In this document: positions 53,684 to 60,808 of the stretch, in pieces
Position numbering within the stretch: the first letter of the stretch is position 1
How the letters are laid out: each line of letters starts with the position of its first letter
DNA from: Prorocentrum cordatum
Lineage: Eukaryota
NCBI GenBank assembly: GCA_963575745.1
Contig: CAUYUJ010000059.1
Span: 248,001 to 312,000 of the forward strand
Reading direction: 5' to 3'
DNA: 64,000 nucleotides
Notes under the pieces: generated by a model
Seen by the model: only the letters and a program-made list of their open reading frames with translations
Database searches by the model: none
What the model was told of the DNA's origin: nothing
Made by a program: the position numbers and the translations under genes

Positions 53684-53970
53684 TCATCATCATCATCATC
53701 ATCGTCATCGTCATCGTCATCACCATCACCATCGCCATCATCACCACCATCATCGCCGTCGTCATCAGCATCATCACCATAATCGTCAGCATCATCAGCA
53801 CCGCCATTAATACAGTCATCATCATCACTTTCATCATGATCAGCATCGTCATCATCGTCAGCATCATCAACATCAGCATCATCATCGCCATCATCTTCAA
53901 CATCGTCATCAGCAGCATCACGACCATCAACCGCATCACCAACGTCACCATTATCACCACCATCATCTTT
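53570..53970. repeat. (CAT)n microsatellite, left flank of the LINE
   Basis: Directly visible; the same repeat type resumes at ~60504. Confidence 0.9.
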
Positions 53971-53974
53971 ATGT

Positions 53975-53993
53975 GTAGCAGTTTTGGCTCAAG
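53975..53993 (+). other. 5'-truncated DinoSL relic
   Basis: GTAGCAGTTTTGGCTCAAG is 17/19 identical to the SL 3' portion; ATGGCG follows 6 nt later at 54000. Confidence 0.75.
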
Positions 53994-56789: not shown

Positions 56790-59700
56790 TTGACCCCTGG
56801 AAAGCAAGAAGATTATTATGCCGCAGTCCCCGCCGCTGCCGTCTAAGACCCCGCCGCCTCGCGAACGCGCCTATTATCCTGACCCAGGAGTGCCGCGGTT
56901 CGCTCGCGGAGCTGAAGGACATGCTCGCCCGCGACCCCTACTCTCCCTTCTACGTCGCCCGCTACTCGGGCTGCCTCTTGGGAGGCGCGGGCGGCGCTGC
57001 GGCGTTCACCCCTGGGCTCACGCGCGATGAACGCGAGCTTCTGCAACGAGATCGCATCGCTGGTCGCCGCCCCCCCCCCCCCCATCCTTTCTGCAACCCA
57101 CCATCGCCATCGGCATCGCGGTTCCTGGCAGGACCATGCTCGCCCGCGTGGCCAACCCGAACTCGGAGATGGAGACCCGCATCCTCAACGCTCACAACTC
57201 TGAGCTCGCGGAGACCCAGAAGGAAGCGGCGCAGAGTGAGCGGCGGCCCCATGCGCGGCGGGCAGCGGCAATCCCACGCCAGCGCACCGCCGTGGCCACG
57301 GGCGATTTTAATTTCACCGGCAACCCCCTCGCAGTCCGACCTGCCCACGCAACCTGGAGTGCGCAGGCAGACGCAGGAGGGCCGCGCCCAGGAAAACCAG
57401 GTCTTCTGGCGCCAGCCCGCACGCAAGGATGTCATTGAGATCGCCACCGACATCCCGACCCACTTCCCGCGGCATCACCAGGTCGGCACCGACGTCGACA
57501 AATCCTCAATCGCCCCGTCGCCCGCCTTGATTCCGCGCCTAAGCTGCCAGCCCAATTTCGCCCAGGAAGCGCGGCCCCTCTCGGGCGCGCGCCTCAGCGA
57601 CCGAGCTCACCATCCACGCCGAAGAGGTTCCCGGCGAAAACAAGCACCCGATCCCCGACTTCGTCTTCCGCCCGAAGCAACGCAACACCTTTCAAAAAGA
57701 TGCTCGCGGAGGCTGAGCACGACGCCGCGACCAGGCTGCGCCGCTTCGACGTCGCGAAGGAGACCATGGCCATGGCGGCCGATCTCGCCCGCGACGAGCT
57801 GCAGCAGCTCCCGCTGCGCACGGGCGGCGCCAACTTTCTCGAGAATAGGCGCCTCGCGCTCCGCGCAATTGCCCGCGCCGTCTGGCGCTCTGATTGCCGC
57901 GCCGCGCGCTCGCCTGCTGCCGCCGCCGAGCTCGGTCGCGAGCGCCTAGACGCCGCGGGACCTCGCCCGCCGCCGCCAGGCGCGGCTCGAGCGCGCCATG
58001 CGACAGTCGGCCGCCCGCGCAACCCACGCCAATGGCCAGCCCGCTGTGGAAGCGCAGCGCCGTGTCCAGCGGGCGTTCCAGAGGCGCGCGGCGCCTTGGG
58101 CGCCCTGTTCAAAGCGCCCTATCCTTCGCGGCATCACGCGCTGTCAGATTGCCCAGAACCCGAGCGCGGCGGAGGGCGGCCCCCCCCCCACACCAGTAGC
58201 GCGCGCGCGCCGGAGGAAATAGTAGCGGCCCTGCGCTGCCACCGGCGGCTTATCTTGACAGGCAAGGCCGTCACGCGCGAGCTGAGCAGATCAACTCCTT
58301 TGTCGACCCCCCCCCCACCCCCTCGCTTCAACGCGGCTGACCTCCCCAGCCCTTCCCTTACTGCACGGTGCGAGGCATTCAAGCAAGGCGGGAACTCTGC
58401 CCCAGGGCACGACCGTCCCCCGTGCCACGCCTGGCCGGCGGCGACCAGGACCATTGACAGTCGCTACCCCATTGTCCTTTGGCTCTTCAGCGCTGCCCCT
58501 GCACCTCTGACGTTCAACCATTCCGCCCATGTTTCCCCCTGCGAAGGGCGACGAGGTCGGCGGCGCCATTGCGCGCTATCGCTTGCCTGCGAGATGCATC
58601 AGCGGCACGCCCGCTGTCGTTAAAAAACTGCGACGCCAAGGCCTTCGCCACAGAGATTAATTCCCCGCTAACTATGTAAGCCGCGGAGCGAGCGCGCGAG
58701 ACCCGGCAGGGCTTCATACGCAGAAGGACCTTCTGCCATAACATGGACCAGCCAGATGCCCGCGAGAGGGCTGCGGGCATGCGTGAAGACGCAAATTGCA
58801 GGGAGGATGTTTCTTCTTGTAGCTTTCGACATCCAAGCTGCCGTCCCCAGCGTGAATCGCACGTGGCTGTTCGCGGCTCGTGAACGGATAAGGCTTCCGC
58901 CAGAGCACCTCGCTGCCATCGAGAGCCCCCCTCTGCCCTCGCCTGCGCGCGCATCGTCCAGGAGATCGCCCCGCTGCTCTGCATAAATTCAAAGGTCATG
59001 CCAGGCTGCCCCTCCAGCAGCAGCCCCCCGGCTTTCGGCGTGGATCCCACTGCTCGCCTCTTAGGGCGCGCGTTCCCGACGGATCCGCGCAAAGCTTCCC
59101 TGCGATGCTGCGCAGACGACATAGACGCGCCCCTGCAGAAGCTCACTTACCTCATCTGTCTCGCCCTTTCCTCTGCCTCCACCTCGAGCCGCGCCTCCCT
59201 TTATCTCCATTCTCGCAAATGCGTTTTCGTTCCGCTTTGGACTGACAGCGCGAAGATGTGGCCGCAGACATCCGCTCCGTCCAGTACCAGATTCTTCCAC
59301 CATAGCAGAACTTTACATTTGCGAGATAGACGAAGCACCTCGAAGTGCGCGTCGGCCCAGCGGCCACGAACGCCCTCCAGCGGGAGGCCTGCTCGCAGAA
59401 ATGGTGGGGGAGAATCCCGGAGACCTCTGCCTCTGACGCACCCCCCCGATTCCTCCCCCCGGTTGCGCGGAGTCACGATCCACTCCACCGTGGGCGAAGT
59501 CACCCAGTTTCATCTGCCACCGAAGATGCCCCTGCACAGAGAGCCTCGGTGCATTCGCAAGCTGCTCAAGTTGCTTCCTAATTCGCTCACAGGCCACGAC
59601 ATATGGCCCTTCCGAGGCTGGGAGCCCGGCTCCACCCCGACGTCCATTGCGGCGTGCGCGGCGGCGACGAGCTGGCGCGCTGCGCAGGCCACCGTCCTTG

Positions 59701-60470
59701 AGCACGCCTCTTGTTGCGCGGAGCTCCAAGACTGCCTGTGGCGCCATAACACACTCGAACGCCATGCGCACTTCATATGGTCCCCGCCATGCTGGCGCGA
59801 CCCACGGGCCATCGTTCAGTTTTTGCGCGACCGCCCCCGCTCTCTTGCACTTCCGATGGTTGCCGCTGACCCGCAGTGGACTGCTGCGGCAGATACCCTG
59901 CGCGCAGCCACTCTAGCCGCCGCGTTCCAGGAGAAGCCGCGGCTCCAAGGACCACGCGCCCGATCCTTGACCCGCGAATTTTGCCCTGACACGATGCACC
60001 TTCCAATGCAGAAGCGAGTGCGCCCTGGATCCCAGAGCTCCGGGCCCCTCTTCTCGCCCCCACGCCGCCTGGCGCCGAAGGGGGCCGCGGCGAAAACTCC
60101 CCCCACTATCTTCCGGTCGGCAATGAAGACGTTCGCGGCAGGATGGATCACCACCCGGAGGACGCAAATCCTCGGCCAGCGGGGCGTCTTTGGATGCGAG
60201 GACGGTCCCGACGCGAGCGCCCACTACCTCTCCTGCTCCCGCATGTTCCACCTCGTCGCCTTACCTCGTTCTGACCCCCTGCCTCCGTGATCGTCCGATT
60301 CGGTCTTGGGGGGGAGTGACTATTATGATGGGACCATCAGGGAGCGTTCGCTCTGGCTGTTGGCCCTCGCTTTCCAAGTTTACCACGAGCTTCGCGCGCG
60401 CACTCCTGGAGCGCCCAATTTATACCCCGAGCACATTGAAGTGCTCGCAGCTGCTGCACATTCTCTCGAG
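56790..60470 (+). pseudogene. LINE ORF2 remnant: APE endonuclease + reverse transcriptase + Cys/His C-terminus, multiply frameshifted
   Basis: In order: WKARRLL, IILTQECRG, ILNAHN, GDFNF (57301), PTH, LSD (APE); SAPGHD, RPLSLKNCDAK, QGFIRRR, FDIQAAVPSV, GCP, CADDI (~59111), KCVFVPL (RT); FGC...D...HYLSC (C-terminus). Confidence 0.85.
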
Positions 60471-60808
60471 GTGTGCGACGAGACCGTGGCGCCTCAAGCT
60501 ACGCACCATCAGCATCTTCATTTGTATGACCAGCATCATCACCATCACCACCATCATCATCAACGTCCTCATTATCAGCAGCATCATCATCGTCGTCGCC
60601 ATCGTCATCGCTATCGTCATCATCATCCCACTCGCCCTCATCATCAAGCTCGTCTATATTCTCCTCCTCCTCCTCCTCTTCCTTCTTCTCCTCTCCCTCG
60701 TCCTCCTCCTCCTCCTCTTCCTCCCCCCGTCCTCCTCACCCTTCCTCCTCCTCCTCCTCCTCCTCCTCCTCCTCCTCCTCCTCCTCATCATCATCATCAT
60801 CATCATCA

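Follow-up and report, generated by a model that had tools for sequence, protein, structure and literature searches.

A long interspersed nuclear element (LINE) carrying a dinoflagellate spliced leader (SL; DinoSL) at its 5′ boundary is described here from a stretch of Prorocentrum cordatum DNA (GenBank assembly GCA_963575745.1, contig CAUYUJ010000059.1, positions 248,001 to 312,000, forward strand), the whole 64,000 nucleotides of which we call the window. The segment at 53978-60503 is most likely a single, old and inactivated insertion of an L1-like LINE, and it probably keeps the layout of such an element, in which an ORF1 region is followed by an ORF2 with an N-terminal apurinic-type endonuclease, a reverse transcriptase (RT) and a C-terminal CCHC-like knuckle (ORF, open reading frame). 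The account that we favour, and regard as quite probable, is that the mRNA of this LINE was trans-spliced and then, at a nick in a CAT tract, reverse-transcribed nearly as far as its 5′ end, and that the resulting copy has since decayed. The key support at the level of the family is that related LINEs also carry an SL at their 5′ ends.

A spliced leader and a flank duplication at the insertion boundary

A first-pass annotation of this DNA, made from its letters only, had proposed an SL relic followed closely by a start codon, and direct reading of the sequence verified both. With the GTA before it, GCAGTTTTGGCTCAAG agrees with DinoSL positions 4-22 at 17 of 19 nucleotides (53975-53993), and an ATG follows at 54000, 6 nt past the match. 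The DinoSL thus read lies on the sense strand at the 5′ boundary of the insertion, as in a DinoSL-tagged retrocopy. Its first three nucleotides (GTA, SL positions 4-6) double as the 3′ end of the 5′ copy of a candidate target-site duplication (TSD), an overlap of the kind expected at a microhomology junction. With up to three mismatches, the 15-nt core of the SL occurs six times in the window against an expected 1.66, a count that none of 100 shuffled sequences reached. The window copy carries one SL only, and no relic cut at the AG after a full SL was found at it.

The flanks of the element were also much as first described. Tandem Repeats Finder (TRF) places (CAT)n-type arrays both before the element (53570-53967) and after it (from 60534), and the upstream array of period 3 (TCA/CAT) runs into CACCACCATCATCTTTATGTGTA ahead of the SL. 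The 23-nt pair at 53955-53977 and 60504-60526, noted earlier as resembling an aged TSD, indeed matches at 19 of 23 positions, with one copy placed at the SL and the other at the end of ORF2, and no third site on the + strand matches the 5′ 23-mer at 17 of 23 or better anywhere in the 64 kb of the window. The first 11 nt of this match are CAT-repeat-like, and its non-repeat core of 12 nt agrees at 10 positions, a level reached about eight times elsewhere in the window. Both copies share their triplet phase with the neighbouring CAT repeats. Such flanks fit a single insertion of 6.5 kb that interrupted one continuous tract of CAT type and has the SL within its duplicated flanks.

A complete but disrupted ORF2

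The endonuclease and RT of the element were traced with a family profile (A1) built from 12 full-length LINE ORF2 proteins and comprising 1175 positions. A1 is colinear with 57109-60488 over profile positions 74-1172, in 10 pieces spread over three forward frames and with independent E-values (i-E) down to 2e-30. Because these pieces lie in alternating frames, the window copy is dead; its ORF2 is complete in extent, yet disrupted by at least eight frame changes in addition to stops. The ordered endonuclease and RT motifs picked out in the first-pass annotation, GDFNF (57301-57315), RPLSLKN (58608-58628) and CADDI (59109-59123), are real domain motifs, colinear with A1 though each in a differing frame, and the RT core further contains FDI..A.PSV and GCP.S. 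The N-terminal 73 positions of A1 were undetected in the window; by eye, and against the consensus, PIILTQE (about 56870-56890) looks similar to the I..LQEVHG of the family. At the other end, where the C-terminal region has one in-frame stop (60288-60290), a CCHC-like knuckle remnant, FGCEDGPDASAHYLSC, is found at 60189-60236 (family pattern C..GC....D...HYL.C). This CCHC-like motif is the only motif at the C-terminus of ORF2, the endonuclease being N-terminal and of the apurinic type.

Since Pfam gave no RT or endonuclease match to the long ORFs of the window or to its single-frame pieces (stops as X), these domains are visible in the window only through the family profile. Searches at the protein level identify the wider family. 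With 58500-60287 as a phmmer query (single frame, stops as X) against 1.84 billion representatives, 140 matches were obtained at E<=1e-3, of which 17 reached E<=1e-10; when 15 of the 140 were submitted to Pfam, RVT_1 was found above cutoff in 14 and Exo_endo_phos at E<=0.001 in eight (seven above cutoff). Conversely, 162 related proteins searched against the window by tblastn matched inside the element only. When solved structures were ranked by their match to the family profile, human LINE-1 ORF2p came first (E 2.8e-41), before R2 (6e-31).

Table 1. Coordinates of the element, its target site and the other SL-headed units of the window, with the SL matches of five related LINEs.
Feature	Position	Strand	Details
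Whole insertion	53978-60503	+	~6.5 kb; between candidate TSD copies, in CAT-type tract
Imperfect (CAT)n/(TCA)n tract, 5′ part of target	53570-53967	.	TRF: period 3, 131.7 copies, 72% matches
Candidate TSD, 5′ copy	53955-53977	+	CACCACCATCATCTTTATGTGTA; 19/23 to 60504-60526
Integrated SL	53975-53993	+	GTAGCAGTTTTGGCTCAAG; DinoSL positions 4-22, 17/19
5′ untranslated region (UTR)	53994-53999	+	6 nt, GCCAAG; direct reading
First ORF	54000-55091	+	363 codons; ORF1-like by position only; ancestral frame shifts near 54860-54914
Internal (GTC)n/(TCG)n microsatellite arrays	55652-56309	+	TRF; inside 55025-56525, uncovered by P0004
Stretch just 5′ of endonuclease	56526-56687	+	Common to P0004 (residues 164-217); tblastn E 0.001
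Apurinic-type endonuclease, frameshifted	56783-57688	+	A1 74-142 at 57109-57321 (i-E 1.4e-8); A1 163-264 at 57377-57688
Endonuclease-RT linker	57694-58536	+	A1 272-353, 376-428 (weak, i-E 0.15), 480-544
RT core, 4 frame pieces	58578-59449	+	A1 555-841; i-E 2e-12, 8e-6, 3e-16, 3e-4
Thumb and C-terminal region to ORF2 end	59472-60488	+	A1 849-1172/1175, i-E 2.2e-30
Candidate TSD, 3′ copy	60504-60526	+	CACCATCAGCATCTTCATTTGTA; starts 15 nt past end of ORF2 profile match
Trinucleotide arrays resuming after the element (CAT-type, CTC-type), 3′ part of target	60534-60849	.	TRF
S1-domain processed retrogene	22284-25537	+	SL 21/21, A-rich tail, 13-bp TSD, inside long (CCT)n
Second SL-headed retrocopy	9168-10270	+	SL 9168-9188, 20/21; 263-codon O-methyltransferase ORF (Methyltransf_3, E 5e-22)
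Related LINE L001			SL match 21/21
Related LINE L002			SL match 21/21, relic 15/15
Related LINE L005			SL match 20/21
Related LINE L008			SL match 18/21
Related LINE L029			SL match 20/21

Related LINEs that begin with the spliced leader

A scan of metagenome contigs with A1 yielded 75 loci (384,552 nt), seven of which reach the ORF2 N-terminus. An ORF1 profile was applied to seven loci (L004, L006, L007, L014, L021, L025 and L041); the contig of L004 begins within ORF1, and L006 keeps the last third of ORF1 and is therefore 5′-truncated. The remaining five of those that reach the ORF2 N-terminus, and of the 75 loci only these, have a complete ORF1 and ORF2. Each of the five carries an SL in coding orientation, 87-232 nt ahead of the start codon of ORF1, so that other copies of the family do begin with the SL. 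Within the 75 loci, searched on both strands, the SL core occurs seven times with no more than two mismatches and always on the RT-coding strand; six of these occurrences are at the 5′ end of complete ORF1-ORF2 units (five loci), one of the six being the relic in L002. As the ORF1s of the relatives are mutually homologous (E 2e-3 to 2e-26), the SL in these loci heads the LINE's own first gene. The tie to the window is direct in the case of L001, which encodes P0165, a protein whose cluster is itself a phmmer match of the window RT.

In three of the five relatives a TSD lies at the SL. That of L005 is exact over 25 nt, consists of (AT)nATT and abuts the SL; that of L029, ACAAAAAAAC[T/G]ACCACT, agrees at 16 of 17 positions, is non-repeat and ends 1 nt before the SL at 2118; and that of L008 agrees at 11 of 12 positions and ends 2 nt before the SL at 8369. 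The five relatives and the TSDs at the leaders of three of them support the proposal that the transcript of the element is trans-spliced and that its integrated 5′ end is the SL, and by extension the parent RNA of the window copy would itself have been trans-spliced.

Particularly informative is L002, in which a full leader, CCGTAGCCATTTTGGCTCAAG, is followed by a relic, CCATTTTGGCTCAAG, truncated at the AG. In the available part of PMC3229502, a full SL with an AG-truncated relic is the signature of an mRNA that was trans-spliced, reinserted and trans-spliced again. For a LINE, this means that transcription of an integrated SL-headed copy began ahead of its 5′ end, and the idea that such copies draw on host read-through and on re-splicing at the AG of the leader finds in L002 the upstream transcription that it requires. 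At the window copy, the AG of the integrated leader may have been reusable in the same manner.

A structural model of the L001 ORF1 (mean pLDDT 64) has a helix at 38-121 and a beta-alpha-beta domain with a fold like that of an RNA recognition motif (RRM), and Foldseek returns weak matches to RRMs and to the human LINE-1 ORF1p trimer (E 3e-3 to 2e-2). Searches of the relatives' ORF1 against PDB and Pfam gave weak coiled-coil-type matches only. The A-runs of the relatives are 6-7 A long only, and the run in L029 belongs to its TSD.

Several features of individual leaders were observed in passing. All four leaders of L005 (at 4532 and 1815), L008 and L029 read CCGTATCC in place of CCGTAGCC, a G-to-T change by which the AG is lost; this is possibly a lineage-specific SL variant. 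The leader at 1815-1835 of L005 marks a further SL-headed insertion, about 2.7 kb 5′ of the SL of the LINE (4532) and near a (TA)n run; it is followed by a mini-relic, CCCTCAAG, and no recognisable ORF was found 3′ of it. In L001, the ORF2 frame is open for 1585 codons (158-4915), starting from an ATG that lies 20 nt past the SL, and overlaps the ORF1-homologous frame (226-1221). An SL-like TTTTGGGCTCAAG with one extra G, possibly a decayed leader, lies at about 2225-2245 of L006, some 1.2 kb 5′ of its truncated ORF1 remnant. Finally, the GCCAAG that follows the SL of the window (53994-53999) and the CATGCTCAAG that follows the SL of L029 (2139-2148) resemble the truncated CTCAAG relics of the SL that are mentioned in the portion of PMC12014239 available to us, and may be traces of earlier cycles.

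One insertion or two?

The alternative that survives best, though we consider it unlikely, is that two events are superimposed at this locus, a host-mRNA retrocopy (the SL with the ORF at 54000-55091) having come to lie beside a 5′-truncated LINE or having been fused with it through template switching by the RT. Retrocopies of host mRNAs with an SL at their head are frequent here, and the window has two more; neither the relatives' ORF1 nor, in a word-indexed search, any other protein shows homology to the 5′ 2.7 kb; and about 1.5 kb of low-complexity DNA (55025-56525) separates the first ORF from the endonuclease. Set against this is a protein from another locus, the 774-residue P. cordatum gene model P0004, which joins 5′ region, endonuclease and RT parts in the same order. 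P0004 is colinear with 54378-54857, 54914-55024, 56526-56687, 57034-57607, 58837-59006 and 59592-60041. Its residues 37-189 align to the first of these segments and then, in another frame, to the second (65% identity), and its Exo_endo_phos domain scores E 0.0068, under the Pfam cutoff. The linkage of 54000-56750 to ORF2, for which the first-pass annotation had proposed a test in other copies, is therefore seen in one other copy. P0004 also skips 55025-56525, which in the window consists largely of (GTC)n/(TCG)n arrays. Once that stretch is left out, the distance from SL to ORF2 is about 1.3 kb, matching the 1.2-1.6 kb of the five SL-headed relatives. In addition, the candidate TSD encloses the whole 6.5 kb, and there is neither a poly(A) nor a second TSD between the two parts.

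A single trans-spliced insertion nonetheless has to be weighed against a number of observations that do not favour it. Both of its boundary marks are degraded matches, with two mismatches in the SL and four in the TSD. At the 3′ junction there is no poly(A) or A-run before 60504, so that the poly(A) or A-rich tail typical of a LINE is missing from the window copy, and its 3′ UTR is at most 15 nt, compared with about 40-50 nt in three relatives. The region 54000-56700 has no detectable similarity to the relatives' ORF1 in a six-frame hmmsearch with a five-sequence ORF1 profile or by hhalign (E 0.04 and 0.15), and for the ORF at 54000-55088 a word-indexed search, which covers proteins of near-equal length, returned no homolog. 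The assignment of 54000-56700 to the LINE rests on its position, on the TSD and on the one gene model P0004, which may be chimeric. P0004, known at the protein level, is moreover the one further copy of the element seen. The relatives have 22-28% protein identity to the window copy in long tblastn alignments, and three of them (L005, L008 and L029) share one record-name prefix and perhaps come from one organism, which would reduce the independent sources to about three. Lastly, the public sequencing runs listed as sharing words with the element include no RNA run. The coiled-coil region that had been read into the 5′ part of the window copy was not confirmed either: the alignment of 54815-55210 with the coiled-coil part of a relative's ORF1 is non-significant (E 0.12; hhalign E 0.15).

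Copies of the element proved scarce. No second copy was detected within the window by blastn or tblastx, and the sole named protein relative is the P. cordatum gene model: a word-indexed search with the ORF at 58884-60287 led to P0004 only, and P0004 led to itself only (near-length proteins in both cases). One public DNA run holds 24% of the words of the element, and two runs from the same study hold almost none. Contigs of these runs cover the element at 80% likeness in short pieces only, four exact pieces of 167-264 nt being listed for one run (X1), and no listed contig piece from the public runs spans either junction. Contig depth in such runs is not equivalent to copy number, and was used neither for copy number nor for expression.

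A coincidence between an SL-like 19-mer, a 23-nt flank match and a 5′-truncated LINE fossil in repeat-rich DNA is very improbable, even if the matches are imperfect (17/19 and 19/23), 11 nt of the flank are CAT-like, and the 12-mer core has about eight chance matches at 10 of 12 or better. With equal base frequencies, the calculated number of window matches to the SL core at two mismatches or fewer is about 0.1; 6 nt separate the SL from the first ATG, and its position coincides exactly with the flank match; the match of the 23-mer, the sole one in 64 kb, lies 15 nt past the end of the ORF2 profile; and the same architecture recurs in five of five complete relatives.

Least credible of all is that the LINE inserts site-specifically into SL RNA genes and that the SL is the interrupted target gene, as in SLACS, CZAR, CRE and NeSL-1: the sequence after the SL does start with GT in L005 and L008, but the SL lies inside the duplicated flanks in the window, L005, L029 and L008, a TSD geometry that contradicts this reading, the upstream flanks are microsatellite or A-rich DNA rather than SL-gene arrays, the post-SL sequence varies among subfamilies, L002 carries an SL together with a relic, and the endonuclease is N-terminal and apurinic-type. 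Rfam likewise found no SL RNA, 5S or other rRNA gene in L001, L002, L005 and L029 or in the window at 50000-64000, where sub-threshold microRNA-like or internal ribosome entry site-like hits were the only returns, though a dinoflagellate SL model is perhaps absent from Rfam.

A possible life cycle

If the SL-headed insertion is the product of a trans-spliced LINE mRNA, its history may be pictured as follows. The RNA of the LINE would gain the 22-nt spliced leader through trans-splicing, like other dinoflagellate mRNAs, and target-primed reverse transcription would copy that RNA almost to its capped 5′ end, leaving the leader as the 5′ terminus of the integrated DNA. At the present locus, insertion at a nick in the (CAT)n-like tract would have produced the duplication of about 23 bp, with decay to follow. 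A copy that happened to land in a transcribed region could be transcribed from upstream and trans-spliced anew at the AG of its leader or in its 5′ UTR, and the re-spliced RNA could then be translated and reinserted.

Because of the relic in L002 and the very short 5′ UTR of the window copy, it is tempting to speculate that the family has no internal promoter and depends instead on upstream transcription and renewed trans-splicing, a proposition drawn from sequence to which we give about even chances. A more sweeping version, in which the family is obligately dependent on trans-splicing, promoterless and revived by read-through, supplies the RT engine behind the DinoSL-tagged retrogenes and has an endonuclease that favours simple repeats, is offered as a tentative and rather doubtful extension.

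Simple repeats as likely insertion targets

The first-pass annotation had also suggested that the element may prefer trinucleotide microsatellites. Among the relatives, a preference for simple repeats found support, and one for trinucleotides in particular did not. In three of the five complete relatives (L002, L005 and L008) the SL junction abuts (TA)n, even though tandem repeats make up only 0.4-3.8% of these loci; the neighbour of the junction is a ACATATAAA-like repeat in L001 and unique, A-rich DNA in L029. Period-3 repeats host two of the window's three SL-headed insertions, namely the LINE, in (CAT)n, and an S1-domain retrogene, in (CCT)n; period-3 and period-6 repeats amount to 16% of the window outside the element (p ~0.07, binomial estimate). 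A bias of the family towards simple repeats is supported by these data, and a trinucleotide-repeat preference as such is not borne out by them. An endonuclease favouring simple repeats would explain the position of both the LINE and the S1-domain retrogene. Instead of sequence-specific targeting, a loosely selective endonuclease or the openness of DNA at repeats may lie behind the bias.

Relation to known retroelements and retrogenes

Dinoflagellate genomes are rich in genes that have passed through an RNA copy and have kept the spliced leader as a scar. Such DinoSL-tagged processed retrogenes were reportedly called 'recycled cDNAs' by Slamovits and Keeling in 2008. They are described in the accessible portions of PMC3229502, PMC5585692 and PMC12014239, and the S1-domain gene of the window (22284-25537) is a textbook case. 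Like them, the LINE has an integrated SL as the 5′ end of its retroposed RNA and shows, in L002, a relic truncated at the AG. It differs in that the retroposed RNA is the LINE's own mRNA, which makes the leader a piece of the mobile element that is inherited with it, and not the scar of a host gene.

The likeness to L1-type LINEs lies in the domain order, in TSDs of 12-25 bp, in the occurrence of 5′-truncated copies (L006), in human LINE-1 ORF2p as the best solved relative and, in the modelled ORF1 of L001, in the long helix with an RRM-like fold. Unlike L1-type elements, the family has no evident promoter region in its 5′ UTR, which measures 6 nt in the window copy and 87-232 nt in the relatives and starts with the host SL; it has little or no poly(A), and its targets appear to be simple repeats.

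SL RNA genes are the insertion sites of SLACS, CZAR and CRE of kinetoplastids and of NeSL-1 of nematodes, in all of which the endonuclease is restriction-like and lies C-terminal to the RT. With these elements the present family has in common a spliced-leader sequence 5′ of a LINE in a host that trans-splices; it is set apart by an SL inside the TSD, by microsatellite flanks (CAT-type repeats on both sides of the window copy, and no RNA gene in 50000-64000 by Rfam) and by an apurinic-type endonuclease. LINEs that target microsatellites, for example elements of the Tx1 and R1 clades, have reportedly been described by Kojima and Fujiwara. The insertions in simple repeats seen here, (CAT)n in the window and (TA)n in L002, L005 and L008, are similar to theirs, the difference being that the repeat unit varies across the copies seen.

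In the part of Song et al. (2017, PMC5585692) available to us, SL-relic genes of Symbiodinium show enrichment for the Gene Ontology term 'RNA-dependent DNA replication', and the protein or mechanism of reverse transcription behind SL retrogenes is given as unknown. A LINE family that starts with the leader, adjoins TSDs and bears leader relics is a concrete candidate for this reverse-transcription machinery. In the full-text literature as far as it was accessible, supplements excluded, no explicit description of a LINE with the DinoSL as its integrated 5′ end was found, and an SL-headed LINE, though expected from first principles, is apparently undocumented. If our reading is true, the family would represent a distinct LINE answer to the 'lost promoter' problem, in which host trans-splicing is borrowed in place of an internal promoter, and it seems to spread as an ordinary trans-spliced mRNA.

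Other retrocopies and further observations in the window

Two more SL-headed units accompany the LINE, and all three are on the + strand. The S1-domain retrogene opens with a perfect 21-nt DinoSL (22285-22305) and contains two ORFs (22389-24113 and 24118-25269) with S1 RNA-binding repeats (E 1e-54 and 3e-50, respectively). It ends in the tail A8CA7 (25523-25538) and is flanked by an exact 13-bp TSD, TCCTCCTCCGCCT. The second unit, at 9168-10270, lies outside microsatellites, and its 3′ end and TSD are indistinct; its SL has an A-to-G change at a position that is also altered in the SL of the LINE. Taken together, the three SL-headed units indicate that target-primed retroposition of SL-capped RNA has operated in this region.

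Just 5′ of the (CAT)n tract, the stretch 52604-53405 (and also 51000-52600) attracts very many X1 contigs at 80-95% likeness, whose loose ends fall at 52980-53035. The pattern suggests an abundant interspersed repeat, and Pfam and Rfam gave no identity for the stretch 51000-53405. Elsewhere in the window, positions 43001-45000 have an unusually strong GC skew (0.43-0.78) and a GC content of 44-50%, lower than in the rest of the window, and a 66-bp tandem repeat occupies 63589-63959 (5.6 copies, 65% matches).

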